A stretch of 64,000 bases of DNA from an uncultured archaeon (GCA_964493715.1 CAZBPC010000001.1:105288-169287); one strand, 5' to 3'. Positions 10,621-49,037 are shown, counted from the first letter of the stretch. The notes: generated from the letters alone by a model not told the origin. A program made the numbers and translations.

Positions 10621-10637
10621 TATTTAAACAAAAAAAA
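10621..10637 (-). promoter_or_regulatory. T-tract/TATA promoter of the GNAT gene
   Basis: TTTTTTTTGTTTAAATA on the minus strand; may double as terminator of the upstream gene. Confidence 0.5.
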
Positions 10638-10642
10638 TTGAT

Positions 10643-11584
10643 TTAATAAATAAGACTATTCCTTGTTGTCTTTTTCATTAGAAAAGCAAGTAAGACGGCA
10701 AAAAGTAAAATTCCAATTGATATCGCTTGTATTTCAATCGGCATGTAGAGAGAATTTCCTGGAGGAGGATCGTTACTTATTGGTGGATCAGAGTTATCTA
10801 GCGTGACAACAACAATGAGATTCAAGCATGTTTCTAAGTTATCGATTAAAACCTGAATTTTATGAATACCTGGATTAATGGTTTGAAAATGAAATGTTAG
10901 GAACAATTCATTCAAAGCTTGATCTTGATAAATGATAAAATGATTATCGACGGGATCGTCAATAAACATGTTTATAGCGGCTAAACTGTTAACTAGTGGA
11001 GTGATTAAGGCAATATTAATTGTATAGGAAAAGTTAGGATTAAGTGAAACGGAGACCTCACGTAACGATTCGCTTTGTGAGAAGCAAAAGCCATTCAAGG
11101 CAATTATTTCATCATCTTGATCAAAGAGATCCATAAAATTTACTGTTCTTTCAATTTTCAAGTGAAGATTCAAAGTGAACTGAGTAATAGCATCCATTGT
11201 AATATTATAAGCCCCTTCAGTAACCATGCCAAGCTGAATCTCTTTAGGTTGTTGATCTACCGTTCCTTGAAAAAGGTTGTAATGATTTCCACTTGGATCA
11301 GTCAATGTCATGTTTATCTCACATTGATGAGGAGTCACGACTTCAAGAGAGAAATCATACATCCAATCCTTTTCAAAAAGTAAATCTTGAAGGAAAATCT
11401 GATCATTTGGGCTAAATACAGTATGAGTAGAATCCCAAATTAACTCTTTACTTGAAGTATTCAGATTTAAATTTTTATTTAAAACGGATTGGAATTGAAT
11501 CTGACTCATTACCAATAATATTATGATACTGCTTATCAAGATATATTCCAAATGAATCTTCCTAATGCCGTGATATTTTTTCAT
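10643..11584 (-). CDS. Secreted/membrane-anchored beta-rich protein, paralogue of 42411-43454
   Basis: N-terminal signal/TM, C-terminal TM with basic tail, two internal repeats containing DP motifs, VTPHxC motif shared with the paralogue. Confidence 0.6.
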   Translation of the reverse strand: MKKYHGIRKIHLEYILISSIIILLVMSQIQFQSVLNKNLNLNTSSKELIWDSTHTVFSPNDQIFLQDLLFEKDWMYDFSLEVVTPHQCEINMTLTDPSGNHYNLFQGTVDQQPKEIQLGMVTEGAYNITMDAITQFTLNLHLKIERTVNFMDLFDQDDEIIALNGFCFSQSESLREVSVSLNPNFSYTINIALITPLVNSLAAINMFIDDPVDNHFIIYQDQALNELFLTFHFQTINPGIHKIQVLIDNLETCLNLIVVVTLDNSDPPISNDPPPGNSLYMPIEIQAISIGILLFAVLLAFLMKKTTRNSLIY

Positions 11585-11780
11585 ATGTTTCCCCTAATTT
11601 TTCCAATGTAAGTGAAAAAATGAGATTAAGCATAAGCTAATTAAATGGGTATAAATTTTAGCTTACTCCAAATTCCATTCGCTCTGAATTGCATGTTGTG
11701 TAAAACAGTCGCCGATAAAAAAGATCTAGACTGCCCTAATTTAATAATGTCTTTACACCCAAATTGTACAATAAAACAAT

Positions 11781-11796
11781 TGTTTATAAAAAAAAA
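11781..11796 (-). promoter_or_regulatory. T-tract/TATA promoter upstream of 11584 (long leader)
   Basis: TTTTTTTTTATAAACA on the minus strand, about 200 nt before the ATG. Confidence 0.4.
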
Positions 11797-12006
11797 TAGA
11801 ATGAATTATAATTCTAAGTTCTCTTCCTTAGGAAGATCAAGTTTTTTTATTACTTCTTCTATTTATATCATGCTAACGTTTTCATGATTCGCAATTTCTT
11901 GAATAGTCCTCCCTTTATCGAAATATTGCATTTTTAATCATTCTTTATCCTTATAGTGTGCTTTTTTTCTTCAAAAGTAATTTTATTTTTTAATATAAAA
12001 AGTAGT

Positions 12007-13239
12007 TTAGGCAACTTTCAACCCAACCATAGAAAAAAGTTCTTTCCCTTGGTCTAAGAGTTCAATTCGTTCGATTTCACCATCATAATAGTTAAATACC
12101 ACGCTATCATCATAGTATTGTTCATTCTCATCAAGTTGCCAGCAAGGTACGTACCCTCGTGCCCTGAAACCAAAATCATAGAGAATCTGTTGGTTTTGTG
12201 GCTCGTGTGCGGATGTAAAAATTTCACAATAACGAATGTCTTGCTCAACCATGCATTTCTTAAATTCTTCAATAAACACTTGAAACTCTTCTAATGAATC
12301 CATATGATATTTTACTTTTTCATAATTTTTCACTGAAGGCGTGTGTAGAAATGAGAAGTAAGATTTACTTCCTTGAAGAGTTAAACAGAAATGTTCATAA
12401 CCATGTTTATCTTTTGATACTTTTCTTTTTACTTTCGATCTTAATTCAGTGATTTTTTGTTGGTCTAATTCCAAGTGAGGAGATACCAATTGAAAAAATC
12501 CCAATTGGTACAAGTTGTCAGCAAACAAGAATGGTTCCAATGCATTTTCAATTAAAGCAGGTACCTTTTTTGTACGATAGTTATTTAGAGTTTGTTCATT
12601 AAATATTAAACCCATTACATCACTTTCCACTGATCCATAGAAGATATCCTTGTTAGGAAAAATCGCGACTGTATCAATCCCACATAGAGCTGTCATGTGC
12701 TGGAGTGCTGCATGGGCTGTTCTGTTTTCGCAATGCCACATTACCACCTCATCCTTGAACGTTGACCACATCCAGTAGTAAGAGCCCATGATGACTTTTA
12801 TGACATCTACCACACCATGAAATTGCTTGCGTAGCATAAATCCACCCATATAGCCTTTTTTTTCTTTGGGGTCGATAACACAGCGAAAACAACCTGCAGA
12901 ATATTCTCCAACTTTAAACAAGATGAAATGATGATTAGGGTCTTTAATAAGCTTTTTAATCACCTTTTCATCTTCCATTTCGCGGTATGGATACGAATTT
13001 TCGTAAACCTTTTTACATATATCTGCTAAATCCTTCGCGTCCTCTGTGCGTGCAAGTTTTAACACTGGACTAATCTTGGTACTTGCTTCTCGTCCTTCTA
13101 TCAAAAAATCGAGTTCCATTCCGTTCTCGATATCCAAATCAAGAATTCCTTCGAACGCTTCAAGGAAAGCTTCTATTGATTTTGGGTACAAGTATTCGCG
13201 CGGGATGATAGGACAGGTTAGTATTTCTTGGGTAATCAT
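12007..13239 (-). CDS. GNAT-fold protein
   Basis: LARTEDAKDLADICKKVYENSYPY; GGFMLRKQFHG; CENRTAH; second degenerate GNAT ending FGFRARGYVPCW. Confidence 0.55.
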   Translation of the reverse strand: MITQEILTCPIIPREYLYPKSIEAFLEAFEGILDLDIENGMELDFLIEGREASTKISPVLKLARTEDAKDLADICKKVYENSYPYREMEDEKVIKKLIKDPNHHFILFKVGEYSAGCFRCVIDPKEKKGYMGGFMLRKQFHGVVDVIKVIMGSYYWMWSTFKDEVVMWHCENRTAHAALQHMTALCGIDTVAIFPNKDIFYGSVESDVMGLIFNEQTLNNYRTKKVPALIENALEPFLFADNLYQLGFFQLVSPHLELDQQKITELRSKVKRKVSKDKHGYEHFCLTLQGSKSYFSFLHTPSVKNYEKVKYHMDSLEEFQVFIEEFKKCMVEQDIRYCEIFTSAHEPQNQQILYDFGFRARGYVPCWQLDENEQYYDDSVVFNYYDGEIERIELLDQGKELFSMVGLKVA

Positions 13240-13290: not shown

Positions 13291-13358
13291 CTATATAAAG
13301 GAAAAATGACAAAATTGGCAATGATGTCATAAATTGTGATTTGTTTTTTTTTATATAG
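13291..13358. promoter_or_regulatory. Back-to-back T-tract/TATA promoters (GNAT and ThiF genes)
   Basis: Minus TTTTTCCTTTATATAG (13291-13306) and plus TTTTTTTTTATATAG (13344-13358) in a divergent spacer. Confidence 0.7.
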
Positions 13359-13382: not shown

Positions 13383-14228
13383 ATGTTAGAATTAGAATCA
13401 AAATCGAAATGGTCTCAAGATTATTTGCATCAAGTTAGTCGTAACATAGGACACGTCACTCTGGAAGAACAAGAAACTCTTCGAAAAACTCCTATTGGCA
13501 TATTTGGAGTGGGGGGATTAGGAGGATTACTTTCTGAACAACTAGTTCGTACGGGTTGTGAACACTTAGTCATTTGTGACAGAGATAAATTCGAACCATC
13601 CAACTTGAACCGCCAAATTTGTAAAAATAAGCACATGGGGCACCAAAAAATCGATGTGGTTGCTGAACACTTGGAAAATATCAATTCCGACGTTCAGGTA
13701 GACAAATTCAATGCTGTTAATCTTCACACCATAGATAGCTTGCTTAAAGACGTGAAAATTGTGGCCTTGACATTGGACGATCCTATAGGTTCAATATTAA
13801 TTGCCCGCGAATGCAGAAAAAGGAATATTCCGATGGTAGAAACGTGGGGAATTCCCTACATCTGGTCTTTTTGGTTTACTCAACAAAGTATTGATTATGA
13901 AACTTGCTATGATCTTGATACTCATGACATGACCATCGAAGAACTATTCGTATCAGGGATGACTAGTTTCGGAGATTTATTTCCAAAACTAACCCAATTT
14001 CCTCGTATCGGCGAAATGTATGACCGATATCCTGGGATGTGGGAAAAAATGAAACGAGGAGAAGTTCCTTACCGCTCGTTTGCGCCCTTTATTGGAATAG
14101 CTGCGTCTTACTTATGTGCAGAAATAATTTTTGCAGGTATTCTTGGAGTGAAATCAATGAATTTGGCACCTAAAGTTGTCGGGTTCGATTACATGAGAAT
14201 GATTCCATTTCAATTTGAAATGGAATAA
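13383..14228 (+). CDS. ThiF/MoeB/E1-family adenylyltransferase
   Basis: SRNIG..EQETL, GVGGLG, DRDKFEPSNLNRQ, K..V; no obvious paired CxxC zinc sites. Confidence 0.85.
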   Translation: MLELESKSKWSQDYLHQVSRNIGHVTLEEQETLRKTPIGIFGVGGLGGLLSEQLVRTGCEHLVICDRDKFEPSNLNRQICKNKHMGHQKIDVVAEHLENINSDVQVDKFNAVNLHTIDSLLKDVKIVALTLDDPIGSILIARECRKRNIPMVETWGIPYIWSFWFTQQSIDYETCYDLDTHDMTIEELFVSGMTSFGDLFPKLTQFPRIGEMYDRYPGMWEKMKRGEVPYRSFAPFIGIAASYLCAEIIFAGILGVKSMNLAPKVVGFDYMRMIPFQFEME

Positions 14229-15169: not shown

Positions 15170-18100
15170 TTATGCGTTCTCTCCTCCTTGTTGGATGCTG
15201 GTATACTCTTCTAATACCTGAGAGATCTTTTGGTGAGATTTCAATAATTCATGACATGCTTCTTTCTGGGTTTCAACAGAAATCGTAAGTGTTGATGGAT
15301 AAGCAAGATAATTAAATACGTCCTCTTCAGATAAAGGAAACCCATCCATTGTAACTAAACTTTTCAAGAAACTCTCTCTTGATTCAAAAACTCCGATTTC
15401 GGGGAGTTGTTCTATTCGAGCTTGAATGTTGGAAACATACATCTCGGATAGATCTTGAGCGATGATTAATGCATGTTCGAGATTTCCCTTGTTTAAATCC
15501 CTCTCTATTTGGAACAAGTTCCATTGCAAGATATCAATCAATTCGGAACGAATAATAGCTTTTACACTTTTTACGGGTAGTTTTTTTATCATTGATCCTT
15601 GAGTTGGGAGGAACTTAAAATCGGGAATGGATTCAGATTGCTGGTCCATTATTTCAAAATCGATGTTGGCAATTGTTTTCCTTCGTGTTTCATAATAATC
15701 TTCTAAGACTCTATCAAACTTTGGTGAGACTTGGTATGAAGAACGAACGGATTGACCACCACTGGCTTGAGCAGGGTGACTCTCTACCAAGTAACCCCTA
15801 TTGAAAAGGATATCTAAAATCTCATCCCTCATCTTATTCACTATTTTCCTATCTTGATTTATCAATGATAATTTGGAGTATAAAATATTCTTAAGTTCTT
15901 CTCGAATCTTGCTCTTATATAAATTACCTACCGTATGTACGGTTTTCAAACTTTCCAAGAAGGTAATGATTTCAGGGATCAGATGAGAATATTCCCCCAT
16001 ATCCTTTTCAAACACCGTTTTTTGTGCCCGTTCCAAGATCACTCTTTCAGCATTTTTCATATTAAATCCTTGGGCATCCATGTGAGTGATAATTTCCTTC
16101 CAATCGAGTGAGTCTAATTTCGCTAATTGACTCGAGTCAATTTTCACCGGAAATGGTTGATAAATATCAGTACGTTTCATTATCGCTTCAGGAGGACTCA
16201 TGGTCATTAAATAACGTGTTTGATACAACTCATTACGAGATTTACTATACATGCCCGTTCCATGCATTTCTTCAAGGTTTAACAAGTTTCTAAGAGTGGA
16301 TATGTCACGAGGATCGATCGCTTTAAATGCAATGTAATTATCAAGGATGGTGAGCACGTGTGGATGGAGATGATGTACTTGATCGGCAGAACAGATGAAG
16401 CCAAATCCTTTTTGCAATAATGGAGTCATGAACTTGGATATTTTCCCATATTTCATCGGTTTTTCAAGAAAGTAGACATCAAATATGAGATCCAGATGGG
16501 GAATAACTAAAAATTTGGGGATATACTGATCATTAAAGTTTAGATAATGAATAAATTTTGCCACCATCAACCATGTAAAAAAGACCTGTTTATTTAAATC
16601 CGATGATCCTGAGATATCTATGATTATGGTTTTATCCGTTTTTAAATACTCTAAAACTGATGAAACAAAATTACTCTCTTCATATTTACTAAACAAGTAT
16701 GTAGTATCTTCTGCTGAGAATTCTTCAAGAGTAGCAATGATTGATTCGACGCCGTTTCTTTTTTCGTGGTCTGGTAAATTTTTTACATGAGTTACAAGCG
16801 TGGAATAATCAACACTAGAGTCATCGTCTTTTTTAATTGAGGAGAGCTTCGAAAGTGAATTTTTAAACAATGTAACCGTTCCCTCATCTTTCTTAAAGCT
16901 CATTTCATATACATCTAACATCAAGTTCAAAAACTCGAGATTGTGGGCATCGTATGAGATCTCAGAATGGATGGGATCGATCGTAATGGTTCTCCCTAAT
17001 TTATAGTAAAGAATCGAATTTTCATGTTCCGTTCCCTTAAAAAGCCTGATCATTTTTGACCAATTGCCTGAATAATCAAAAACAATGGAATTTTGATTTT
17101 GCTTGATGAGTTCAGCAACTATAAGCATTGAAACTGTTTCCCTATTTTGAAATGTTCCATTCGTGATTAAAGAACGTTTAGCTTGAGCTTCTGTGAATCC
17201 AGCGTCAATTTCTCTACCTAAAAACTCAGTATTGATAGTAGTTCCGATATTTATATAACTTTCTAATTGTAATGGAGTATTAAATTCCGCAGCAATTTTA
17301 GTTTCAATTCCTTTCTTGAATTCATTAGCAATGGTGATGAAAGAAGTTAATGTGGTACCTTGTGTGATCATGTAAGGTAAGTAAGAACCTTTTAACTGAG
17401 TAAACCTGGTTTTGAGTGAACTCACGGTAAGGGCAGATTCCAAGTGATTTTTTTTGAGTGGTTTTATATTAAAAGTAGAATAATACGAATGGAATGAAGT
17501 TTTAAGGATTATCGCATTCTCCCGAAGCTGAGATTCAAGGTCTTGAAAATCAGCAGTAGAGACGTTTTTCACACGTTTATACACGTGAGTAGTATAAATT
17601 CCTACTGTTTTCCATATGCCGGCTCTTTGTATCATCCACTTGTCTTCTTCTCGCTTATCTCTTATCTTATTCATGTGATATTGTTTTTCTGATCGACTCA
17701 AGTATTTTTTTCCTAATTTATAGAATCGATAGTAAGAAATTGCGCCGGTAATTACCGTGGTTCCAAAGGATATTCCTTGAGACATGAGTGAGCCATAGAA
17801 TTTGCTATCATATGCATATACAGGTAATTTAACTTCATCCACGCTAAATGCTTTCAAACCTCCCAATAAATTATCTCCTATCTGGAAAAAAATCGTCTCA
17901 GGCGCTCGTGAAAAGCGATAGAAACGAATATCACTAAAAGGATTTATGGGAATGATCTCAGGAGAATTAAAATTCTTTTTTGAAAAAAGCTGAAACAAGG
18001 GTTCTTTCCACCAGCCCATGAGAATCAATCCTATCACTATACTAGATGATAAAATTGTCAGAATCCCATTTTTCCAAACCGCAGAAACCAATCCACCAAC

Positions 18101-18955
18101 AACTATTGCAGTGATTAAGGTCATTATTGTTTTGGAAATAATTTTCATCGTTATTTTGATGTTATTCTTTATAGGATTACTTGGAGGAATATCTTGTTTG
18201 AGAAATATGGTTCTCAAGGCTTGTACGGCTTCATTTTTCTGCAATAGAGTTATCTTGTAATGATGAAAGTTAGGGACAAAATCCGAATTGATAGTCAATG
18301 TTTTTGAGTGCAATGTTTCTAAGAATCGATTGAATCTATTTTTGGAAAAAATACCCTTAATCTCGTGAGATACTGCAAAATAGATAATAGTCCGAAATGG
18401 TGTCATTCTTGCCCCGTTTATCTCTTTTTTCAATGATGATATTTGCGTGGATGGGGTTAAGATGGGCTGTTGTATTACCTGGTAGGTAATGCTTTGAAAA
18501 CGAGTTGAAAGCACTCTGATAAATTGCGTGATATTAGCATTAACATTTTCAGGCAACACCTCTACCCGAAAAATTCGTATTCCCACTGTGAGCAAATCTT
18601 CTCGATTAGTAAAAAAGATGGAATTTTGATCCTTGTTCAATTGCCAGAATGATAAAGATTTAAAAGGATTAAACGGTTGAGTAAAAAAACTTCGAGTTGA
18701 AAATATTAAAATGAAGACTATCATGAAAAACACGCAAAGAGGAACGATTTTGAACAAGTCTGATGATAATAGATAACCATGTATTGCAATGACAGTGGTT
18801 AGTCCTAATAATACCCCTCGTTTAATCCGTACTGTATTTTGAGTAACATCTTTTTTAACGGGGCTTAAGGGCCAGATGTTAAGATACTTCTTGCTTTCAT
18901 TTTCGTCTTCTATTTGGATTATTTTTGGTTTTAAATATTCAGCGTAATTTACCAT
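15170..18955 (-). CDS. Membrane-anchored VirB4/HerA/FtsK-superfamily protein with degenerate Walker motifs
   Basis: SLITNGTFQNRET...IVFDYSGNW (Walker A position), TIIIDIS, FLVIPHLD (Walker B position), GFGFICSADQ...LDNYIAFK, MSPPEAIM. Two TM hairpins in the N-terminal half. Confidence 0.7.
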   Translation of the reverse strand: MVNYAEYLKPKIIQIEDENESKKYLNIWPLSPVKKDVTQNTVRIKRGVLLGLTTVIAIHGYLLSSDLFKIVPLCVFFMIVFILIFSTRSFFTQPFNPFKSLSFWQLNKDQNSIFFTNREDLLTVGIRIFRVEVLPENVNANITQFIRVLSTRFQSITYQVIQQPILTPSTQISSLKKEINGARMTPFRTIIYFAVSHEIKGIFSKNRFNRFLETLHSKTLTINSDFVPNFHHYKITLLQKNEAVQALRTIFLKQDIPPSNPIKNNIKITMKIISKTIMTLITAIVVGGLVSAVWKNGILTILSSSIVIGLILMGWWKEPLFQLFSKKNFNSPEIIPINPFSDIRFYRFSRAPETIFFQIGDNLLGGLKAFSVDEVKLPVYAYDSKFYGSLMSQGISFGTTVITGAISYYRFYKLGKKYLSRSEKQYHMNKIRDKREEDKWMIQRAGIWKTVGIYTTHVYKRVKNVSTADFQDLESQLRENAIILKTSFHSYYSTFNIKPLKKNHLESALTVSSLKTRFTQLKGSYLPYMITQGTTLTSFITIANEFKKGIETKIAAEFNTPLQLESYINIGTTINTEFLGREIDAGFTEAQAKRSLITNGTFQNRETVSMLIVAELIKQNQNSIVFDYSGNWSKMIRLFKGTEHENSILYYKLGRTITIDPIHSEISYDAHNLEFLNLMLDVYEMSFKKDEGTVTLFKNSLSKLSSIKKDDDSSVDYSTLVTHVKNLPDHEKRNGVESIIATLEEFSAEDTTYLFSKYEESNFVSSVLEYLKTDKTIIIDISGSSDLNKQVFFTWLMVAKFIHYLNFNDQYIPKFLVIPHLDLIFDVYFLEKPMKYGKISKFMTPLLQKGFGFICSADQVHHLHPHVLTILDNYIAFKAIDPRDISTLRNLLNLEEMHGTGMYSKSRNELYQTRYLMTMSPPEAIMKRTDIYQPFPVKIDSSQLAKLDSLDWKEIITHMDAQGFNMKNAERVILERAQKTVFEKDMGEYSHLIPEIITFLESLKTVHTVGNLYKSKIREELKNILYSKLSLINQDRKIVNKMRDEILDILFNRGYLVESHPAQASGGQSVRSSYQVSPKFDRVLEDYYETRRKTIANIDFEIMDQQSESIPDFKFLPTQGSMIKKLPVKSVKAIIRSELIDILQWNLFQIERDLNKGNLEHALIIAQDLSEMYVSNIQARIEQLPEIGVFESRESFLKSLVTMDGFPLSEEDVFNYLAYPSTLTISVETQKEACHELLKSHQKISQVLEEYTSIQQGGENA

Positions 18956-20628: not shown

Positions 20629-20696
20629 TATTTAAAAAAAAAATCTCTTAGTGAATATATATTCGAGTTAATATCCTAGTTTTTTCTTTTTAAATT
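20629..20696. promoter_or_regulatory. Back-to-back T-tract/TATA promoters (membrane operon and candidate ncRNA)
   Basis: Minus T-run+TTTAAATA (20629-20643) 21 nt before the ATG; plus TTTTTTCTTTTTAAATT (20680-20696). Confidence 0.6.
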
Positions 20697-23237: not shown

Positions 23238-23333
23238 TATTTAAAAAAAAAATTGAAAAAGAAAAAAGAGGGGAAGAAACCTCCATACTTTCAACTGCTT
23301 CTCTCTTTTTATCTAACAATTTTTCTTTATAAA
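23238..23333. promoter_or_regulatory. Back-to-back T-tract/TATA promoters (HhH-TM gene and Hel308-like gene)
   Basis: Minus T-run+TTTAAATA (23238-23252); plus TTTTTCTTTATAAA (23320-23333) 24 nt before the GTG. Confidence 0.7.
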
Positions 23334-26487: not shown

Positions 26488-26507
26488 CTATATAAATAAC
26501 AAAAAAA
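26488..26507 (-). promoter_or_regulatory. T-tract/TATA promoter
   Basis: TTTTTTTGTTATTTATATAG, 20 nt before ATG 26467. Confidence 0.5.
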
Positions 26508-26525
26508 CAAAAAAAGAATTTTCAA

Positions 26526-29859: not shown

Positions 29860-29874
29860 TATTTAAAAAAAAAA
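29860..29874 (-). promoter_or_regulatory. T-tract/TATA promoter of the hef operon
   Basis: T-run+TTTAAATA, then ATGATA, 22 nt before the ATG. Confidence 0.65.
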
Positions 29875-32901: not shown

Positions 32902-32917
32902 TATTTAAATAAAAAAA
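32902..32917 (-). promoter_or_regulatory. T-tract/TATA promoter
   Basis: TTTTTTTATTTAAATA upstream of 32854. Confidence 0.55.
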
Positions 32918-35721: not shown

Positions 35722-35750
35722 TTTTTTGTTTAAATAGAAATGCATGATAA
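35722..35750 (+). promoter_or_regulatory. T-tract/TATA promoter of the 45-aa ORF
   Basis: TTTTTTGTTTAAATAGAAATGCATGATA, nearly identical to 43871-43899. Confidence 0.65.
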
Positions 35751-35942: not shown

Positions 35943-35959
35943 TTTTTTTTATTTAAAAA
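35943..35959 (+). promoter_or_regulatory. T-tract/TATA promoter of the protease-RadB-like operon
   Basis: TTTTTTTTATTTAAAAA. Confidence 0.5.
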
Positions 35960-36770: not shown

Positions 36771-37114
36771 ATATGAAAGGGATGTGTTTAATAGTTATTG
36801 GATTGGCTTTTTTTATGGTTTATCAAACCAATCCAATGGGAACACTCATTATTGCTGGAGTGATTCTCGCTGGCTATGCGTATATCAAATCTAGAAAGAA
36901 AGGCAGTTCAAGGAGAAAAGGGGTATTTTTTGGGAAGGGAGTGAGATCGATGCAAGAAAATTCTCCAATTAATGAAATCATGACAATGTTTTTAGTCCAG
37001 CAGATTTTGGATAAAAATCGTGAGAAACTATCATCTTCAGAATCTCAAGAAAAGGATCAAGAAATATTGGAATTGGAACAAAAGAAGCGAGAAATCCTGT
37101 CCCTATTGGAGTGA
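36764..37114 (+). CDS. Small membrane protein with coiled-coil tail
   Basis: Two N-terminal TM helices, basic patch, C-terminal coiled coil; overlaps the upstream gene. Confidence 0.6.
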   Translation: MVNMKGMCLIVIGLAFFMVYQTNPMGTLIIAGVILAGYAYIKSRKKGSSRRKGVFFGKGVRSMQENSPINEIMTMFLVQQILDKNREKLSSSESQEKDQEILELEQKKREILSLLE

Positions 37115-37122
37115 AATGAATA

Positions 37123-37919: not shown

Positions 37920-37945
37920 TTTTTCTTTAAATATGCTGGATGATA
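37920..37945 (+). promoter_or_regulatory. T-tract/TATA promoter
   Basis: TTTTTCTTTAAATATGCTGGATGATA, TATA 22 nt before ATG 37956. Confidence 0.65.
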
Positions 37946-37955
37946 TTTATGTTAC

Positions 37956-38333
37956 ATGTCAAGCCATCATGATTCTGATACCAATGATACCAATTCGGTC
38001 GTGATATGTTCAGTGTGTCATTCAGAGATTATTGATCTAGTCGGAGTATATCAGTCACCAGTAAATTTTGCAGTCGTGTGTAAAAAATGTTTGACTCGAT
38101 TTACGCGCAATGACATCGAGATGATGATCGGTCTCTTTTTTTTATATGGAGGTTATTTTGGTAAATTAAAAAATAGAACTTTCTCGTTAAATAAAGTGCT
38201 TTCAAGCATGGATATGCCTATTAACAAGGAAGAAGTTGAAGAGATGAATCAAAGGCTAATGCATCAAGCGTTAATTCACGGGCTCAGGCCATTTGAATTC
38301 AACAAAAAACTTGCTCTTTATACTGGTTATTAG
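37956..38333 (+). CDS. Zinc-finger hypothetical protein
   Basis: CSVC...VCKKC; own T-tract/TATA promoter. Confidence 0.6.
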   Translation: MSSHHDSDTNDTNSVVICSVCHSEIIDLVGVYQSPVNFAVVCKKCLTRFTRNDIEMMIGLFFLYGGYFGKLKNRTFSLNKVLSSMDMPINKEEVEEMNQRLMHQALIHGLRPFEFNKKLALYTGY

Positions 38334-38377: not shown

Positions 38378-38391
38378 TTTTTTATTTAAAA
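38378..38391 (+). promoter_or_regulatory. T-tract/TATA promoter of radA
   Basis: TTTTTTATTTAAAA. Confidence 0.5.
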
Positions 38392-38455
38392 GCTTTTGAA
38401 TTAATTTCACCCTAAATTGAAATTTATAATAAAAATAGCATAAAAATGAAATATC

Positions 38456-39709: not shown

Positions 39710-39787
39710 ATCAAATTGCGTTTTTTTTAATATCTTTATTTTATTCCTGAAAAAAAGTATTAATAGCATATTAGTTTCTTTGTAGTT

Positions 39788-40600
39788 ATGAAAATTTGCC
39801 TGATTTTTTTCTCACCAACTAATAATACTGCTCAAATAGCAGATGTAATAAAAGAGGTATTAGTTGAGAGAAGTATTGGTGTGGATTTGCATGATATAAC
39901 ACCATATGCAGAAAGACAGAAAAAATTTGATCTTCAAGATTATGATGCTTTTTTTTTTGGATTCCCAATTCATGTTCAAAGAGTGCCATCTATTATTCGG
40001 GATTGGATTCATACCTTGAATGGAGGGGGAAAGTTTTGTTCAATATTTTTTACGTATGGAGGGGTAACTACTGGAATTGCTCATTATGATACAAAAAGAA
40101 GATTAGAAAGTCAAAATTTTCAAATTATTTCGACTGCAGAATTCTTAGGAAAACATACATTTAACCTTGGTGGTTGGAATTTAATGCCTGATAGACCAAA
40201 TGAAAAAGATTTCTCAGTTGCGAGAGTATATACTATTAAAACCCTTGAAAAAATTATTTCACACAATACTCAAATGATCGAATTCGAAGAACCTAAAATT
40301 ACTGAAAAACAACTCAACCGATTAGATAAAGTACCAAAGGGAGGCATGACACCACCTTCACGTAAGGGAAAGGCTTGTTGCATGTGTTTAAAATGCGAAA
40401 TAGAATGTCCAAATAATGCAATGGATGCTAATGCGGGAATTTCTAATGGAAAGAAATGCATTAGATGTTTGAGGTGTGTATTTATTTGCCCAGATAATGT
40501 TCTTGAGATTAACGATATGAGACCAGCATATTCCGTTATTGTTAATGCTGAAAATACCCCAGAAAAATTAGCGAAGAAAGAGAGTAAATACTATTTATGA
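39788..40600 (+). CDS. EFR1-family flavodoxin-ferredoxin fusion
   Basis: FFSPTNNT flavodoxin start; two CxxCxxCxxxCP motifs. Confidence 0.85.
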   Translation: MKICLIFFSPTNNTAQIADVIKEVLVERSIGVDLHDITPYAERQKKFDLQDYDAFFFGFPIHVQRVPSIIRDWIHTLNGGGKFCSIFFTYGGVTTGIAHYDTKRRLESQNFQIISTAEFLGKHTFNLGGWNLMPDRPNEKDFSVARVYTIKTLEKIISHNTQMIEFEEPKITEKQLNRLDKVPKGGMTPPSRKGKACCMCLKCEIECPNNAMDANAGISNGKKCIRCLRCVFICPDNVLEINDMRPAYSVIVNAENTPEKLAKKESKYYL

Positions 40601-42410: not shown

Positions 42411-43454
42411 TTAATCCATTTTGGATTGGTAATTTATTGCTTCTTTACGTTTCCGAAAAATCATCATAACTCCAATTACCAATATGACTCCCCCCAGACC
42501 CATTCCTGCCACCATCATAGTTTCTGGAGGGAGAAAAATTCTCGGGTTATCGGAAGGGGTCGTTCCATTGATGTCAGTAGGATCTTCACCCGATGCAATA
42601 ACTCCCTTATTTACCATTGCATACGCGACATTTATGTTTTCATGACCTACATCAACGTAAATTTCAATCCGTATTGAATAAGTTCCTCCTTGAGATGTGC
42701 CAAACAAAAATGAATTGATTTCTGACACCCCTGCTAACGAGTTGTTCAAGAAAACTGCATAAGGAAGGTCATTTGGATCAAACACCGTTAAATCAACACG
42801 ATCCACCGTGCTTAAATTCCCTTCTGCGGAGACGCGTCCTATGTAAAATTTATACGAGTAATCCGATTGTAAAGCAAATTGATGGATGATATAGGTCTGG
42901 TCAGCATTAAATCGTGTCACCTCGTACAATACAAAATTAATTGGATCCCATTCAGGAATTTTCTCTCTCAAGCATTCATACTCTTTCTCAATCTTGATGT
43001 GAATATTTACGTTAAAAATACTCTCTACTTCGAAAGAGAAAGTATGATTACCTTCCATAGCTGTTCCAAAGGGTATTTCCTGATAACTTAAATCGTATGG
43101 AACTTGCTGTAAGGTACCATCATACACGATAAAAAGTTTTTCGTCGGGATCATATATTCGAACCGTTATATTACATGAGTGGGGTGTGACCAAGCGAATC
43201 CAAGTGAAATAAGTGAAATCCTCCAAGAGAGGAGTGTCTGTAAAGTTTAATGGAGCTCCTCCAATCTCAAACGTGAAAACTTTATCCACGAGGATGTCCT
43301 CTTCAGCACTTAGATGAATTGAACTGGAAGGCTCCATTCTCGCCACATTTTTCCCAATAAAATCATGAGGAATAAAATTAGATGCCGTGATCATGATAAA
43401 AAACAATAATAAGGTTAAAATGAAGATGGTAATTGTATTAATCTTAATATCCAT
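42411..43454 (-). CDS. Secreted/membrane-anchored beta-rich protein, paralogue of 10643-11584
   Basis: Signal/TM, RLVTPHSCNITVRIYDP, second DP repeat, C-terminal TM. Confidence 0.65.
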   Translation of the reverse strand: MDIKINTITIFILTLLLFFIMITASNFIPHDFIGKNVARMEPSSSIHLSAEEDILVDKVFTFEIGGAPLNFTDTPLLEDFTYFTWIRLVTPHSCNITVRIYDPDEKLFIVYDGTLQQVPYDLSYQEIPFGTAMEGNHTFSFEVESIFNVNIHIKIEKEYECLREKIPEWDPINFVLYEVTRFNADQTYIIHQFALQSDYSYKFYIGRVSAEGNLSTVDRVDLTVFDPNDLPYAVFLNNSLAGVSEINSFLFGTSQGGTYSIRIEIYVDVGHENINVAYAMVNKGVIASGEDPTDINGTTPSDNPRIFLPPETMMVAGMGLGGVILVIGVMMIFRKRKEAINYQSKMD

Positions 43455-43761
43455 GCACCTCTAATTCTTCAAATTCCACGATGAGTTCGGCGGTAACGGG
43501 ACATTTGTCGTACTGAATGCAGGTAAAACAAGGCTGATCGCTCCAAAAATAGGCTTTCTGGTTCGGACGATCTACTATAAGTATTGGAATTCCAGATCGT
43601 GGACATAATAAAGCAGAATTGCTGAGATTCCCTCGTTTTGGTAATGCATAGGACAGCCCGCAATTATCGCATTTCACATATCGCTTATAATTCTTCGTTT
43701 TAAAAATCATCAAGGAACCATCACATTGAGGACAAGTTCCTATCTCGTCTAATTGTCTCAT
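43444..43761 (-). CDS. Topoisomerase-C4-type zinc-ribbon protein
   Basis: IGTCPQCDGSL...YVKCDNCGLSYALP, CPRSG, CFTC...C. Confidence 0.7.
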   Translation of the reverse strand: MRQLDEIGTCPQCDGSLMIFKTKNYKRYVKCDNCGLSYALPKRGNLSNSALLCPRSGIPILIVDRPNQKAYFWSDQPCFTCIQYDKCPVTAELIVEFEELEVHGY

Positions 43762-43826: not shown

Positions 43827-43899
43827 TATTTAAAGAAAAAATGAAAAATTACTAAATCGGGACTCCACTCTTTTTTTTTTTAAAAAGAAATGCATGATA
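43827..43899. promoter_or_regulatory. Back-to-back T-tract/TATA promoters (Zn-ribbon operon and pilin-like gene)
   Basis: Minus TTTTTTCTTTAAATA (43827-43841); plus TTTTTTTTTTTAAAAAGAAATGCATGATA (43871-43899). Confidence 0.7.
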
Positions 43900-44266: not shown

Positions 44267-44536
44267 TTAGCCCCAATCGCATCTATATCCAGTACCTCCT
44301 GAAGGCCACGTGAAAATAATTGCTTCCTCCTGACAAACATACCAACATGATGCACATTCCATGCATTTTTCTAAACTTTTTATCTTTGCTTTTTTTTCAA
44401 CCATTTCAAAGCAACCTGCAAGGCATACTTTTACACAGTTCATGCATCCTATGCATTTATTTTCATCGATTTTTATGAAATCTCCAGTTTTTTCAACCCA
44501 TTCCACACCTGGGAATTCTTTAAACGTTCTTACCAC
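44267..44536 (-). CDS. FixX-like 2x[4Fe-4S] ferredoxin
   Basis: CIGCMNCVKVC, CMECASCWYVC, WPSGGTG...WG. Confidence 0.85.
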   Translation of the reverse strand: MVRTFKEFPGVEWVEKTGDFIKIDENKCIGCMNCVKVCLAGCFEMVEKKAKIKSLEKCMECASCWYVCQEEAIIFTWPSGGTGYRCDWG

Positions 44537-44553
44537 TTAAAAGTCACCTCATT

Positions 44554-46215
44554 TTAGTTCTGAAAAACGATAGGATTTGCATTTTCGACAAATTTTAATA
44601 TTTTTTTACTCAATCGATTTAAAATAGGGTTAAATATCTTTAAAATAAAAAGATAAACGGGTTCAATAATCGGTAGAGCTTTTATCATAAAATTATTCAA
44701 AGAATTTGAAAATGGAACTAGTATAAAGGAAAATACTTTTCTTATTTTTTTTAGCGCTTTTAAAAAGGTATCTATTAATATCAAAAATCGCATGAATCTC
44801 CTTTCCATTTTTCTGAGCTTTTTAGAAGGTATTTTTTTGATTTTTTTTTCCCCAGGGTGATCATACGTCTCAAAGAGCCAATTTTGAAAATACCTAAAAA
44901 ACATCTTTATCCATTTAGTTATTATAGTTGGGTCCTTATAAACATAAGAAAGAAGAATTTTAAAGAAGGGAGTCATAAAATGGGTTAACGCCCCCAAACC
45001 CCACCCATTATGAATATATTCTTTCAGCTTTTTTAAATCGTGCTCTTCTTGTGCAATTCGTAAATTATACCTATTTTTTCCCGAAATTGACCATTGAATT
45101 ATTGGATGTTCTTTTATCTTTCGGTCATATTTCTCCAAAAATGATTTTGAAGTATCATTGACTTTTATTGCTTCAATTGCTATGTTAGCAGCTATTTCTG
45201 CAGAAAACCAAGCTGCAGGGACTCCATCACATAATTCTGTGCTTTCAAGTCCTGCTGCATCTCCAATCAATATCATACCATTTGTGTGATTAGCCATAAT
45301 ACGTAAGTTTTTGTTCAAACCAACATATATTTCAAATCCTGCCCACATCCTTGCCCTTAATTCAGCATGAGGAGCTACTAGAGTTTTCCACCAAGGTAAT
45401 TTTTCGGTAATGTTGCGATGGTATTCTTTAAAATAATTAGTCAAATTTGTGACCATATTGCCATTTTTCCTTAAGCACTGATCCTGCATAAAGTGAAGAG
45501 AATTTCGATAAGGCCAGACCATTAGACCGTTTCCATAACCAAGAGGAGGTGCTATCTTTTGTTCATCCCATCCCCAACACATTTTTACAGAATAACCAAA
45601 AATCTTATCAATAAATTCTTTTGGCATGATATAATCATAAACGTCTGCCAAGGAAATAGTCTCAGGCTTATATTTTTTTCTTATACCTGCTTTTATTGCT
45701 AACAGTCCTTTTGAACCTTCGGCATCAATGACAATTTTACACCGTATATACTCTCCTTCATCTGTTATTATTCCTCTAATATAATTATCCTCCTTAATTA
45801 CATCTATAGCTGTTGTAGATTTTTTCAATATCACACCTGCATCAATCGCTTTTTTAACTTCCCACTCGCAAAATGGCTTACAATATGTATTATACCCAAA
45901 AGCAATTACAGGGGAAAATGGTTTTGGAACTCTCAAAGAATCATCAATTTCAATATCTCCTTTCTCAATATCCTTTATGATATAATTAATAATTCCATCA
46001 GAAGGGCGTTCAAATGGGGGATTGCCATCTCTAATAAAATCTGGTCCAAACAGAAATCCATAAAATGGAATTGTTAATCCAGAAATTACCTTGTCTCCAA
46101 CGTTCTCAGATCTTTCAAGCAATAGCGTTTTCAATCCCTTTTCTGCACATATCTTAGCAGCAATAGGTCCGCCAAATCCCGCACCAACCACAATAACATC
46201 AAATTCTTCATCCAT
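44554..46215 (-). CDS. FixC/geranylgeranyl-reductase-family FAD oxidoreductase
   Basis: DVIVVGAGFGG, LLLER...GDK..SG, IDAEG, LIGDAAG; followed by a FixX-like gene. Confidence 0.8.
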   Translation of the reverse strand: MDEEFDVIVVGAGFGGPIAAKICAEKGLKTLLLERSENVGDKVISGLTIPFYGFLFGPDFIRDGNPPFERPSDGIINYIIKDIEKGDIEIDDSLRVPKPFSPVIAFGYNTYCKPFCEWEVKKAIDAGVILKKSTTAIDVIKEDNYIRGIITDEGEYIRCKIVIDAEGSKGLLAIKAGIRKKYKPETISLADVYDYIMPKEFIDKIFGYSVKMCWGWDEQKIAPPLGYGNGLMVWPYRNSLHFMQDQCLRKNGNMVTNLTNYFKEYHRNITEKLPWWKTLVAPHAELRARMWAGFEIYVGLNKNLRIMANHTNGMILIGDAAGLESTELCDGVPAAWFSAEIAANIAIEAIKVNDTSKSFLEKYDRKIKEHPIIQWSISGKNRYNLRIAQEEHDLKKLKEYIHNGWGLGALTHFMTPFFKILLSYVYKDPTIITKWIKMFFRYFQNWLFETYDHPGEKKIKKIPSKKLRKMERRFMRFLILIDTFLKALKKIRKVFSFILVPFSNSLNNFMIKALPIIEPVYLFILKIFNPILNRLSKKILKFVENANPIVFQN

Positions 46216-46410: not shown

Positions 46411-46812
46411 TTAGTGGAATCCTGGAGAATTGGTTGGTTGGTAAACGGTCATTCCAAAAAGTACAAGAGTCCCACCCGTGAGAAACGCTCCCATATAAAG
46501 AAGTAGAAATCCCAAGACCATTCCTCCAACCCATATTTTATGACCTATAATTAGTTTTGCTCCCACGATTAGAAGAGTAAATCCCCCGACGGTTTGAAAT
46601 ATCTTTCCTAAATAATCAAAAACCAATCGAAATGAAGTCCCAATATAGTATTGCAAAGTAATTCCATAAAATGGCATGAAAACCAAGAGGAATAACACCA
46701 CTCCAATTACGAGGATTGTTATCCTGCTGGTTCTCCTCCGTCCATGATGACCGTCTCCATCATTAGCGTAATACGAATACTTATCATGCAAGTAATAATC
46801 TTCACGATCCAT
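46411..46812 (-). CDS. Small membrane protein
   Basis: Three hydrophobic segments. ATG 46812 follows an AGGTGA SD and a T-tract/TATA promoter. Confidence 0.6.
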   Translation of the reverse strand: MDREDYYLHDKYSYYANDGDGHHGRRRTSRITILVIGVVLFLLVFMPFYGITLQYYIGTSFRLVFDYLGKIFQTVGGFTLLIVGAKLIIGHKIWVGGMVLGFLLLYMGAFLTGGTLVLFGMTVYQPTNSPGFH

Positions 46813-46852
46813 GAAATAGTTCACCTTATTTCTCCTCAATTCTTAGTGTTTT

Positions 46853-46895
46853 AATTTAAAGAAAAAATGGTAAAGGTCATTTTGTTTTTTATATA
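46853..46895. promoter_or_regulatory. Back-to-back T-tract/TATA promoters (membrane gene and FEN1)
   Basis: Minus TTTTTTCTTTAAATT (46853-46867); plus TTTTGTTTTTTATATA (46880-46895). Confidence 0.65.
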
Positions 46896-46916: not shown

Positions 46917-48002
46917 ATGGGAATCAAACTTCGCGATTTAGTCACAAATATACCAATTGATGCATCTGAATTAGCAGGGAGTGTTATAGCAATTGATGCA
47001 CCAAATATTATTTCCAGTCTTTTCTCGTTTTCCCATAAAAATTCAGTTGATTCCAAATATTTTCTGGATGGCACTCAGCGTCCAATTTCTCACCTTTACG
47101 GTTTATTATATCGAGTGAATTTTTACTATTCCAAAATGATCCTTCCTATTTTTTGCTTCGATGGCATTGATTCAGAGCTCAAAAAAATTCGTACCAAGGA
47201 TCGGCTCAAGGATTTCTTGTTTACCGAAAGATGGTTCAAGCAACTATTAAAGGATGGTGATAAAAATCGAGCTCGAGAAATAGCGATGAGTTCAGAATAT
47301 CTTTGGCCCAATATTATTAAGGAATCAAAAGCCTTACTTGGAGCTTTAGGTGTCCCTTACATCGAATCTCCTGCATCTGCAGAATCGCAATGTGCTCAAT
47401 TGGTCAAGGACAACATAGCACGTTATTCGAACTCTCAAGATTATGATTCCCTTCTTTTTGGATGCCCTCGCGTGGTTCGAGATCTTTCTAAATCCTTACG
47501 CAGAAAAGAACACGGAAAGTGGACCTATACCAAAATACAACCCCAGCTCATTGAATTAAAGTCATTTTTAAAAACGTTGAATATATCTCAATTCCAATTA
47601 GTCGATATGGGGCTACTTATTGGTACTGATTATTTCCCAGGAATAAAAGAAATAGGACCTAAAAATGCGCTGAGATTGATAAAGCTCAAGGGTACAATTG
47701 AAAGGGTGATAGCAGTCGAGAGAAATAAATATGATTTTTCCAAATTGAGCACTGGAATTATAAAAGAAGTGCGGAAGATCTTTCTCTTTCCAGAAGTATT
47801 AATTAAGTATCCTGATTTTCATTGGAATATGCCCCATGAAGAAAGAATCCTTTCATTGTTATGTAGGGATCATCGATTAAATGAAGAAAGGGTCAGAAAC
47901 AATCTCGAAAAAACGATCACGCATTATAATGAAACGATCAAGCATTCTTGCTCTTACTTAAATGAGCCTCGCATAATACAGAAAAAATTGTTGGAATTTT
48001 GA
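46917..48002 (+). CDS. fen: Flap endonuclease 1
   Basis: MGI start, IAIDA, SHLYGL, FDG, AESQCA, SQDYDSLLFG, GTDYFPG..IGPK; C-terminal PIP-like QKKLLEF. Confidence 0.9.
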   Translation: MGIKLRDLVTNIPIDASELAGSVIAIDAPNIISSLFSFSHKNSVDSKYFLDGTQRPISHLYGLLYRVNFYYSKMILPIFCFDGIDSELKKIRTKDRLKDFLFTERWFKQLLKDGDKNRAREIAMSSEYLWPNIIKESKALLGALGVPYIESPASAESQCAQLVKDNIARYSNSQDYDSLLFGCPRVVRDLSKSLRRKEHGKWTYTKIQPQLIELKSFLKTLNISQFQLVDMGLLIGTDYFPGIKEIGPKNALRLIKLKGTIERVIAVERNKYDFSKLSTGIIKEVRKIFLFPEVLIKYPDFHWNMPHEERILSLLCRDHRLNEERVRNNLEKTITHYNETIKHSCSYLNEPRIIQKKLLEF

Positions 48003-48019
48003 TTTTTTTTCTTTAAAAA
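48003..48019 (+). promoter_or_regulatory. T-tract/TATA promoter of rpa (or FEN1 terminator)
   Basis: TTTTTTTTCTTTAAAAA directly after the FEN1 stop. Confidence 0.45.
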
Positions 48020-48057
48020 TAAAGAAATCATTTTCATCCAAAAATGTCTAACATATT

Positions 48058-48999
48058 GTGATTAAAGTGAGTTCTTTTAGCGATGAACTGTATCAAATCC
48101 TATTAAAAGAAGGACTTGAGGATGAAGAGATCGCAAAGGCAATAAGAAAGAAAAGTCAAGAATACGGAGGTTTTATGAGCCAAGAAGGAATGTTGTTTCT
48201 CATCGCTAAGGAACATGGCATTAACATACGTAACCCCGATTTAGATCCCGAAGTATATCATTTGGTTGAAGAAGAAATTGATTACGACGAATTTACCATC
48301 CCCGTTTCGTCAGTTAGAGAGGGAATGGCAAATATTGTTTTATTGGGGAAAGTAATTAAAAAGTTTACTATCAATGAATTCTCGCGAAACGATGGTTCGA
48401 TTGGAATGGTTGGATCTTTTATGCTACAAGACGAGAGCGGTGCAATCAAGGTGGTGGCATGGGATGATCACGTTAAAATGCTTCAATCTGAATATTTTAA
48501 TGACGGGGTCTTAGTGCGAATCATCGAAGGGTATTCTAAAATGGGAAGGAACGAAGAACTTGAAGTAAATCTGGGAAAGAGGGGAAAATTAATGCTTTCG
48601 CCCGAAGACGTCAGTTCCAAAGTAAAGAAACGTCTTGAAAATTTGGACTCATCAGAGAAAAAAGCTATAAAAAATGAAGTTAAAAATCACGTACCTTTAC
48701 GAATTCTGATGCAGAACGAAAAATTTATTCGCGTGGTGAAGGGTATCGTGAACGTGGAAGAATTCAAAGAAATCACGTTAAAATCGGGACAAGATTCGTT
48801 CCTCCTAAAACTCACCATCACGGATGAGGAAGATTATTCAGCTCAGATCATCATATGGGGCGATGATGCCATTAAATGCTTGAAGATGATAGAAGAAGGT
48901 GAATACTACTCGTTTCATGATTTGATGGTTAAAGAAAACTCCTATACAGGAGAAAAAGAGCTCTCTTTCACTAAAAAATCTTCATTAAAAGCAACATAA
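48058..48999 (+). CDS. rpa: Replication protein A / OB-fold ssDNA-binding protein
   Basis: GGFMSQEGMLFLIAKEHG N-domain; FSRNDGSIG.V....LQDESGAIKVVAWD OB fold; second OB fold. Confidence 0.85.
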   Translation: MIKVSSFSDELYQILLKEGLEDEEIAKAIRKKSQEYGGFMSQEGMLFLIAKEHGINIRNPDLDPEVYHLVEEEIDYDEFTIPVSSVREGMANIVLLGKVIKKFTINEFSRNDGSIGMVGSFMLQDESGAIKVVAWDDHVKMLQSEYFNDGVLVRIIEGYSKMGRNEELEVNLGKRGKLMLSPEDVSSKVKKRLENLDSSEKKAIKNEVKNHVPLRILMQNEKFIRVVKGIVNVEEFKEITLKSGQDSFLLKLTITDEEDYSAQIIIWGDDAIKCLKMIEEGEYYSFHDLMVKENSYTGEKELSFTKKSSLKAT

Positions 49000-49022
49000 C
49001 AATATCAAAAAATCTTATTTTC

Positions 49023-49037
49023 TTTTTTTTTTAAATA
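49023..49037 (+). promoter_or_regulatory. T-tract/TATA promoter of the roadblock-GTPase pair
   Basis: TTTTTTTTTTAAATA. Confidence 0.5.

Follow-up and report, generated by a model that had tools for sequence, protein, structure and literature searches.

A pyrimidine-rich element abutting the TATA box marks the promoters of a relocatable accessory island in Lokiarchaeia that carries a divergent TFB homologue

We analyzed a window of 64,000 nucleotides (contig C1:105288-169287) from genome G000, a Lokiarchaeial assembly of 3.68 Mb in 160 contigs with 31% G+C. The window holds an accessory island of ~43 kb (approximately 9374-52210; left bound 9373-9447, right bound 51957-52210), and this work concerns a promoter motif found before many of the island genes, in which a T-run stands upstream of a TATA-like box (referred to as T-type). 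An earlier note made from the window sequence had listed 21 such sites between 10621 and 49037 and regarded the T-tract as a replacement of the purine-rich transcription factor B (TFB) recognition element (BRE). At all 21 sites a TTTA[AT]A[AT]N box comes after a T-run on the strand given. The strict pattern used in our scans, TTTTT-N0-3-TTTAWAWA, was fitted by 18 of them and the remaining three are near misses, with boxes that end in TTTAAATT at 20680+ and 46853- and in TTTAAAAG at 38378+. The spacer is 4 nt at 26488-, and the T-run is interrupted at 46880+.

The sites are described here with their scores in a matrix learned from relatives and, as fractions, the number of relatives that have the motif within 160 nt upstream of the homologue. 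On the plus strand, the promoter at 35944..35959 precedes the operon 36012-37827, which encodes a protein with five transmembrane (TM) segments and an HExxH motif, a 116-amino-acid (aa) protein and a KaiC/RecA-like ATPase (13/13 at gene 36012). It is followed by 37920..37933, located 22 nt before gene 37956-38333 and probably leaderless (score 17.2; 13/13), and by 38378..38392 (box TTTAAAAG) before an accessory RadA paralogue, 38456-39709 (13/14). Further to the right, 43871..43886 precedes 43890/43911-44135 with an in-frame ATG at 24 nt (12.2; 12/12 at gene 43890), 46876..46895 an XPG/FEN1-like nuclease (gene 46905; in-frame ATG 46917, 21 nt; 11/13), 48004..48019 an RPA-like OB-fold gene, 48058-48999 (16.0; 4/6), and 49023..49037 the operon 49089-51596 for a 177-aa protein, an Arf/Ras-like GTPase and a 399-aa protein (13.5; 10/10 at gene 49089). 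In the left part of the island, 13344..13357 lies 25 nt before the ThiF-family gene 13383-14228 (2/2), and 23320..23333 precedes a Hel308-like helicase with an in-frame GTG (23358) at 24 nt (13.1). The likely target of 35722..35736 (16.5) is an unannotated 45-aa open reading frame (ORF), 35785-35922(+), with a GAGGT Shine-Dalgarno sequence and a gap of 48. The site at 20680..20696 (12.7) is an orphan, with no annotated target and small ORFs only.

On the minus strand, the highest score was that of 13292..13306 before gene 12007-13239 (20.4; 4/4), and 43827..43841, before the Zn-ribbon gene 43444-43761 and gene 42411-43454, scored 18.0 (12/12 at gene 43444). The promoter at 29860..29874 stands 22 nt before the operon 29837-26526, which encodes a 195-aa protein, an SF2 helicase and a DUF1922 Zn ribbon (11/12 at gene 29250). 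That at 32902..32917 precedes a 973-aa prenyltransferase-toroid protein, 29933-32854, with a leader of 47 nt (15.2; 4/4). The operon 20607-14259, which encodes membrane proteins and a 1261-aa HerA/VirB4-like protein, has its promoter at 20629..20643, 21 nt from the ATG (15.0; 4/7), and the HHH-domain membrane protein 21038-23218 is preceded by 23238..23252 (13.4). The remaining sites are 10621..10636 before gene 9448-10605 (in-frame ATG 10599 at 21 nt; 15.8; 4/4), 46853..46868 before 46411-46839 (15.0; 5/9), 26489..26512 with its 4-nt spacer, 21 nt before 26207-26467, and a weak site at 11783..11796, 198 nt before 10643-11584 (10.1).

Scanning of the window with the strict pattern gave 29 overlapping matches, equal to 18 distinct sites, and all of them fall within 10621-49037. 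One hundred dinucleotide-preserving shuffles yielded 2.18 ± 1.89 matches (maximum 7), and none of the 100 reached 29, an excess that fits the earlier note and that shuffled DNA does not reproduce. The whole genome has 188 distinct strict sites, and 18 of them are packed into a block that makes up 1% of its length. Two of the 18 are intragenic (18937+ and 29952+) and look like chance. The tract occurs on both strands at five divergent pairs (13299-/13350+, 20636-/20687+, 23245-/23326+, 43834-/43879+ and 46860-/46888+). The earlier argument that a terminator cannot explain the tract at such pairs was borne out, because both strands carry it there.

Relatives from five genera of Lokiarchaeia were compared, and the motif is kept upstream of the orthologues, in line with the fractions given above. 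Operon-internal genes (26526, 27056, 36764, 37123, 42411 and 49646) gave values between 0/7 and 0/13. The spacer around the motif has diverged in the relatives, while the T-element is conserved to the base across genera. Genes without the motif that are themselves not conserved are flavodoxin 39788, NUDIX 40609, 41552 and the Fer4/FAD genes at 44267-46215; the non-conserved island genes have A-type promoters (an A-run in place of the T-run) where these are readable. The A-rich BREs that had been quoted for neighbouring genes do exist, as AAAAAATTATTAAT at 9357-9344(-), GAAAATTGTTATAA at 7670-7657(-) and GAAAAAAAGTATTAAT at 39749-39764(+). The last of these is inside the block, not in the flanks, and is an ordinary A-rich BRE with a TATA box located 23 nt before the non-conserved flavodoxin/Fer4 cargo gene 39788-40600.

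To describe the motif independently of the window, we set 354 upstream regions of island genes in relatives against a background of 2760 regions. Unbiased 8-mer enrichment rebuilt the window's motif; the top words were TTTTCTTT (106 vs. 88; p 3.5e-54), TTTTTCTT, TTTCTTTA, TTTCCTTT (16-fold) and TTTAAATA. Expectation-maximization, seeded with the top words and for that reason not fully blind, gave a matrix built from relatives only, with the consensus A-TTTTT(T/C)C-TTTA(A/T)A(T)A and a site in ~47% of the relatives' called upstream regions. The 8-bp A/T-rich TATA box, TTTA(A/T)A(T)A, has T/A at a frequency of at least 0.98 at 5/8 positions. Directly 5' of it there is no purine-rich BRE; the element there is pyrimidine, with T at least 0.99 at -3 to -6, C or T at -2 and C at 0.67 at -1.

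Applied to the genome, this matrix gave 146 hits at a score of at least 12, of which 14 fall in the block against 1.7 expected. At scores of at least 14 and at least 16 the corresponding figures were 50 hits with 9 in the block (0.58 expected) and 16 hits with 5 in the block (0.18 expected). Matrix hits are denser in the block than in any other 42-kb window of the genome, and none of these comes close. Eleven of the 14 block hits are intergenic, in sense orientation and at most 150 nt from a start codon. Outside the block 19/132 hits are placed like promoters and 85/132 are intragenic. Among 2555 upstream regions outside the block, T-type sites had no orientation bias (53 sense vs. 56 antisense), and A-type sites were biased (79 sense vs. 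39 antisense) with a peak 20-29 nt before starts. The 23 upstream regions of the block had T-type sites in 11 cases and A-type sites in none. An A-run before a TATA-like box was found at tRNA genes, psmB, a radical-SAM gene and the flavodoxin-like cargo gene.

A genome-wide general promoter was considered and ruled out: upstream profiles gave a Shine-Dalgarno signal and no fixed box or T-type signal, oriented 7-mers were Shine-Dalgarno words only, and generic TTTAWAWA boxes had no upstream bias. These results support T-type sites as a distinct promoter class, with the T-rich element exactly at the position of the purine-rich BRE, and we regard a genuine island-specific class as very probable. 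The earlier note had spoken of a sigma-factor-like regulon. A distinct promoter class and a candidate initiation factor in the block agree with this idea; a dispersed regulon does not. The motif belongs to a single discrete accessory island that can relocate and serves as its promoter code, with satellite loci numbering a few at most. The search for further members gave a mixed result, since the 19 promoter-placed hits outside the block include eight scanned by Pfam that are heterogeneous (radical SAM, HEAT repeat, C2H2 finger and five of no known family). Two of the best outside hits in G000 stand before the genes C63:3270-6917 and C147:2628-2999, whose homologues are located beside the islands of G008:C12 and G015:C255; these loci may represent either satellite members or pieces of an island on small contigs.

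We then related the motif to start codons at 264 sites in relatives, scoring ORFs of at least 50 aa that start within 12-129 nt. In the motif orientation 222/264 sites had such an ORF start, 75 at a gap of 19-27 nt and 82 at 42-59 nt. The opposite direction gave 85/264 (3 and 10 in these two ranges) and random positions 114/264 (13 and 14). Start codons stand 21-23 nt (leaderless) or 45-56 nt after the box. The leaderless-type spacing proposed earlier was also seen in the window, with gaps that include 19, 21, 22, 24 and 24 nt, and the gaps in relatives peak sharply at 21-23 nt. An initiator signal follows the box in 279 sites, leadered units included (T 0.56 at +21, A 0.75 at +22), and was not seen in 804 generic TATA-like boxes. 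The start-codon gaps and the T/A signal together fit a transcription start ~22 nt after the box.

A downstream ATGATA had been described as a frequent companion of the box. It is present 6-9 nt 3' of the box at the four sites named, and the 13-nt sequence GAAATGCATGATA is common to 35729+ and 43879+, but it does not belong to the conserved motif. ATGATA within 20 nt was found at 3/15 window sites vs. 3/264 relatives' sites, and ATGCAT at 3/15 vs. 0/264; both words were therefore rejected as motif components and are specific to the window. A palindromic ATGCAT core lies just 3' of the box in three window promoters (10615-10600, 35740-35749 and 43890-43899). ATGCAT and GAAATGCATGATA may represent a lineage-specific regulator site or a recent promoter duplication.

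The island boundaries were placed by comparison with related genomes. From psmB (8637-9320) to the gene 52211-52666 the distance is 42.9 kb in the window and 112 nt in G104:C2; in 12 other genomes of the genus a single contig holds both flank markers at a distance of 5-19 kb. Synteny of genes 9448-51596 extends to 20 loci in relatives (ten in eight genomes of the genus, plus ten from four other genera; near-complete in four), and the window flanks were not found there. Both flanks of the G015 island match contig C25 of G000 at 72-84%. G+C at third codon positions is 0.327 in island genes vs. 0.242 in the rest (p 1.5e-13). Island proteins share 25-76% identity with those of G002, and for six flank proteins the identity is 61-80%. 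Different insertion sites, empty sites and a variable copy number (the TFB marker occurs in 1-6 copies per genome) are the features of a mobile element. No integrase or transposase was matched in Pfam, NCBIfam or PHROG among the proteins scanned, about a dozen of which are unannotated. There is no direct repeat of 10 nt or longer at the island ends, no tRNA gene and no RNA family at gathering scores was found in the window, and the contigs G008:C12 and G015:C255 have no terminal overlap. A virus was ruled out: ten proteins searched against PHROG gave one weak SieB-like match and no capsid or integrase hallmark. No relatives of the island TFB were found in a viral contig collection.

Pfam families in the block comprise ThiF-family, HHH-domain, Hel308-like helicase, a second SF2 helicase, prenyltransferase-toroid, KaiC/RecA-like ATPase, RadA, Zn-ribbon, XPG/FEN1-like nuclease, RPA-like OB-fold and Arf/Ras-like GTPase proteins. 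The presence of RadA, RPA, FEN1 and a Hel308-like helicase raised the possibility of a host DNA-repair regulon. The island RadA (38456-39709) is an accessory paralogue, ~43% identical to the genome's two other RadA-type genes, which are of the canonical type, and the island type of RadA occurs in only part of the genus. Because RadA is accessory and the block is an insertion, the repair regulon was dropped in favor of an island. In one island subtype (loci G008:C12, G008:C49, G015:C255 and G016:C32) two adjacent ORFs make up RadA, one with residues 1-261 and the other with residues 261-415.

Many island products are membrane proteins. The 1261-aa protein, 15170-18955(-), carries three TM-like segments; the fold of its residues 520-1010 resembles that of HerA/VirB4 (Foldseek E 1e-11 for this core; VirB4 4ag5, TMt 0.65; model predicted local distance difference test (pLDDT) score 71). 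It has no GxxxxGK[ST] Walker A motif and carries FDYxGxWSK in its place, conserved in 8 homologues; PDB sequence searches with the protein and with its core alignment gave no match. The protein may be an inactive or unusual DNA translocase. The 726-aa protein 21038-23218(-) has HHH_5 near its N-terminus, two TM-like segments near 560-590 and a weak NCBIfam ComEA match (E 0.0011), and could be a membrane DNA receptor. The product of 36012-36770(+), the head of the operon with the KaiC/RecA-like ATPase, is a five-TM protein with the motif HEFSH (HExxH). It is conserved in the 13 relatives' loci that have a homologue with an alignable N-terminus and may be an intramembrane metalloprotease. Since the HerA/VirB4-like and HHH proteins occur together with RadA, RPA, a nuclease and helicases, the island content resembles a DNA transfer-plus-recombination module, a lead and not a finding.

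The candidate reader of the T-element is a divergent TFB/TFIIB homologue, P0001 (409 aa, 33084-34313, minus strand), with a Zn ribbon, two cyclin repeats, an altered C-terminal helix-turn-helix (HTH) and a tail of ~100 aa. Its gene is the only conserved first gene of a unit in the island that lacks a T-type promoter (0/18 relatives), and its upstream regions are A-rich. P0001 matched NCBIfam NF001658 (TFIIB) with E 1.9e-4 and is collinear in alignment with the genome's eight other TFB paralogues. The N-terminal Zn ribbon, CDAC...CANCG, is present in 8/9 aligned sequences (the ORF start of the ninth was chosen too late). A profile of the nine sequences was searched against PDB, and the top 7 matches were all TFIIB/TFB, for core and ribbon separately; the ribbon matched Pyrococcus furiosus TFB 1pft (E 0.089). 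Two cyclin-fold repeats were indicated by Foldseek, whose top 12 matches were all TFIIB/TFB (E 1e-5). VIA-align of the model also gave TFIIB/TFB as top matches, with Z 13.8-14.5 over model residues 95-317, a range to be read against the Z of ~13 that helical folds reach by arrangement alone. Among these matches is P. woesei TFB 1d3u_B from the complex of TATA-binding protein (TBP), BRE and TATA (Z 13.8, 192/201 residues, root-mean-square deviation 4.0). The helix that reads VTEVT(I/L)R(N/S)RYKEL in the host is (I/V)(K/Q)MSTI(H/Q)xQVE in the island protein, unlike all eight host TFBs.

Two of the eight TFB paralogues that G000 has besides that of the island are above the NCBIfam cut-off, and six are divergent. 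TBP is encoded by only one gene, C13:41760-42449, and carries a long acidic N-terminal tail; the consensus of the box is unchanged. A housekeeping TFB of the host is encoded at C61:11183-12076. The island TFB is present in every contiguous island examined but one, minimal islands such as that of G098 included. The family was found in 73/119 sampled genomes of the order at 1-6 copies, with 71/99 in the island-bearing family and 1/14 (f2), 0/1 and 0/4 (f4) in the others. In five genomes of f2 and f4, the strict motif was at the control level and unclustered. When TFB presence was compared with motif clusters in the genus, the clusters fetched from 3/5 "negative" genomes (G077, G080 and G083) were island fragments on short contigs; the TFB gene would fall in an assembly gap in G077, and the G080 fragment is an 8.6-kb contig. 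In a protein collection, most of the best 120 of 219 clusters are unnamed or hypothetical, and a few are labelled TFIIB-like.

The TFB-like gene has an inverted repeat, GTCGA-N5-TCGAC, at 34330-34360(-), between an AT-rich box and its Shine-Dalgarno sequence. A conserved word, ACTGGTGATCTTAATT, which differs from this repeat, lies ~60 nt upstream of the TFB orthologue in G002, G015 and two G008 loci. Both may be operators controlling an island switch. The C-termini of the family end in ...(K/T)GPPxxC in 8/9 sequences, with Cys terminal or nearly so, and the window copy ends in ...KGPPLQVVGP. The adjoining conserved gene 29933-32854 encodes a prenyltransferase alpha-alpha toroid domain.

On balance, and with reservations, we consider it probable that the island's own TFB reads the T-element, so that the two form an orthogonal TFB-promoter pair. 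Each conserved unit would start from A-TTTTT(T/C)C abutting the TATA box TTTA(A/T)ATA, with the transcript beginning at the T/A initiator 21-22 nt after the box and being either leaderless or equipped with a leader of ~25-30 nt and a Shine-Dalgarno sequence. The single host TBP would bind the unchanged TATA box, and the T-rich element, which lies where a TFB reads its BRE, would be read by the protein encoded at 33084-34313. The gene of this factor would itself be driven by its ordinary-looking promoter, and its production would switch on the whole island together. The island units form a distinct target set with a distinct promoter feature, as the targets in an alternative-TFB regulon do. A suggestive co-variation points in the same direction: islands with the helix MSTIH(R/K) have C at -2 in 54/151 sites and those with MSTI(Q/N)x in 30/200, a comparison that draws mostly on a single genus and a single independent contrast and has chance hits among its sites. 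In these sums the window, of the same genus as the first group, is counted in the MSTI(Q/N)x set, and two loci without a TFB gene in the piece are excluded.

Several observations weigh against this assignment. The NF001658 match scores 20.6 bits against a cut-off of 384, below what the curated family demands and indicative of a remote unclassified branch, and Pfam TFIIB gave no match to P0001 at E ≤0.01. The E-values of the PDB profile matches are only 0.04-0.09, and the model has a mean pLDDT of 58.9, reaching 75-89 only in the core. The B-reader/linker segment of the host proteins aligns to a gap in P0001, where a different conserved segment, LEYHRPYD..., is found; P0001 might therefore not recruit polymerase in the usual way. 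At G083:C31:8207-12119 a gap of 300 nt separates the homologues of 36012 and 29933, and the TFB gene that usually lies between these neighbours is missing; no island TFB was found in G083 (99% complete), which keeps T-type motifs. Any of the eight other host TFB paralogues could be the reader. A predicted complex of the host TBP core with the island TFB core returned a score of 0.00, which is no answer and counts neither way.

A rival idea is that a host factor, either one of the eight TFB paralogues or a separate DNA-binding regulator, reads the T-element, and that the island TFB has another role, such as that of a decoy or of a co-activator resembling the truncated TFB3 of Sulfolobales. In its favor, the paralogues are available in the genome, the G083:C31 locus has motifs without the gene, and the B-reader/linker region of the island protein cannot be aligned. 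In the available part of one report, Sulfolobus TFB3 activates a DNA-transfer regulon without canonical TFB DNA binding (PMC6101594). We nevertheless consider such a host reader unlikely. T-type sites outside the island have neither orientation bias nor promoter placement, and a host factor would therefore have almost no host targets. Moreover, the second cyclin repeat of the island TFB is complete and includes an HTH whose invariant core, MST-I-x-x-Q-V, is conserved across genera, and its gene alone among the conserved units does without the motif.

Runs of oligo-T serve as termination signals in archaea, and histone wrapping is less favorable on poly(dA:dT). The tract could on these grounds be structural, keeping histones off or working as a terminator or insulator at strong constitutive promoters of foreign DNA. 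The foreign composition of the island and the position of several sites behind a co-directional upstream gene are compatible with such a role. An intrinsic oligo-T terminator would show a 3' T-run free in its register to the box, and this is not what was found: the register is fixed, C at -1 (0.67) and C/T at -2 are conserved, five divergent pairs have the tract on both strands, host and cargo promoters of the same chromatin lack it, and it is conserved at the base level across genera while the adjoining spacer diverges. We consider a structural role improbable. Chance clustering of AT-rich words could be expected to some extent in a genome of 31% G+C, in which most matrix hits outside the block (85/132) are intragenic, but it is already refuted, with next to no likelihood left, by the shuffles (0/100), by the specific orientation and spacing and by orthologous conservation of up to 13/13.

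The T-type promoter shares with the canonical archaeal core promoter an 8-bp box (TTTAWATA), a likely start ~22 nt further on, a pyrimidine/purine initiator and an element abutting the box upstream. One source (PMC11065993) quotes this box consensus for the early promoters of SIRV2 and gives the purine-rich BRE with G at -6 and A at -3. The island element differs in being pyrimidine, with T at -3 to -6 and C at -1/-2, roughly a GAAAA flipped in place. Archaeal viruses such as SIRV2 also have near-identical core promoters before many unrelated genes, as far as the same text goes (PMC11065993). Early promoters of the SIRV2 type use the strongest host-type purine BRE, whereas the island has a different element there.

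Alternative TFB regulons (the Sulfolobus TFB2 cell-cycle wave, TFB3 in DNA damage and Ced/Ups, and haloarchaeal TFBs) likewise combine a paralogous TFIIB-family factor with a gene set. TFB3 is reported to govern genes for DNA transfer and repair and to co-evolve with the Ced system (PMC6101594), and the BRE of TFB2 is reported to be similar to that of TFB1, with spacing as the only difference (bioRxiv 10.64898/2026.09.06.749720). In contrast to the TFB2 and TFB3 regulons, the island element is wholly different, and factor and targets travel in one island; TFB3 is truncated and lacks the DNA-reading core, whereas the island factor is full-length with an altered helix. The island content invites comparison with the TFB3-controlled Ced/Ups system (PMC6101594), as a lead and not a finding. 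TFB genes have been reported on rudiviruses, on Asgard viruses (WyrdV1, JinchiV1 and Baiyanviruses) and on the Asgard mobile genetic elements (MGEs) 10H_0 and 7H_42 (bioRxiv 10.1101/2021.07.29.453957; PMC13700489), and the excerpts of these sources describe no cognate promoter motif for them. A further analogy is with phage-encoded or extracytoplasmic function (ECF) sigma factors, where an element carries its own specificity factor and a sharp non-host consensus, although the island TFB belongs to an unrelated protein family and polymerase system. Phage and ECF sigma factors have their own promoter consensus, carried by the matching genes.

TFB paralogue regulons, TFBs borne by viruses and MGEs, and shared viral promoter cores are known; new, relative to the texts found and as far as these were accessible, would be the coupling of a mobile-element TFB to a distinct recognition element. 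Our literature search found no paper on an Asgard promoter consensus or a T-rich BRE; Asgard MGE gene maps and Fig. S5E of the TFB2 preprint could bear on novelty. The broadest picture is of relocatable Lokiarchaeia islands with a private, orthogonal transcription system (their own TFIIB-family factor and a pyrimidine BRE) that drives a self-contained DNA-transfer and recombination machine. Its parts would be the membrane HerA/VirB4-like ATPase, the ComEA-like HHH membrane protein, RadA, RPA, the XPG/FEN1-like nuclease and two SF2 helicases. We put this picture forward tentatively and hold it, as a whole, to be doubtful.

The cis code is unusually sharp, conserved across genera and physically linked to a candidate reader, so that three recombinant proteins and two promoter templates would be enough to test the hypothesis directly. 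The motif is also a handle by which island members and boundaries can be found from sequence. The island itself deserves study, being multi-copy, located at differing sites and equipped with an accessory RadA, RPA, nuclease, helicases, a HerA/VirB4-like membrane protein and a small GTPase; we know of no gene-transfer system for these organisms. If the island TFB does read the T-element, this would be the first time that the TFB of a mobile element is matched to its cognate promoter, and it would provide a natural orthogonal promoter-factor pair for Asgard and archaeal genetics. It would also be a model for how the TFIIB family gains new promoter specificities; in eukaryotes such a step went along with the division into Pol I, II and III systems.

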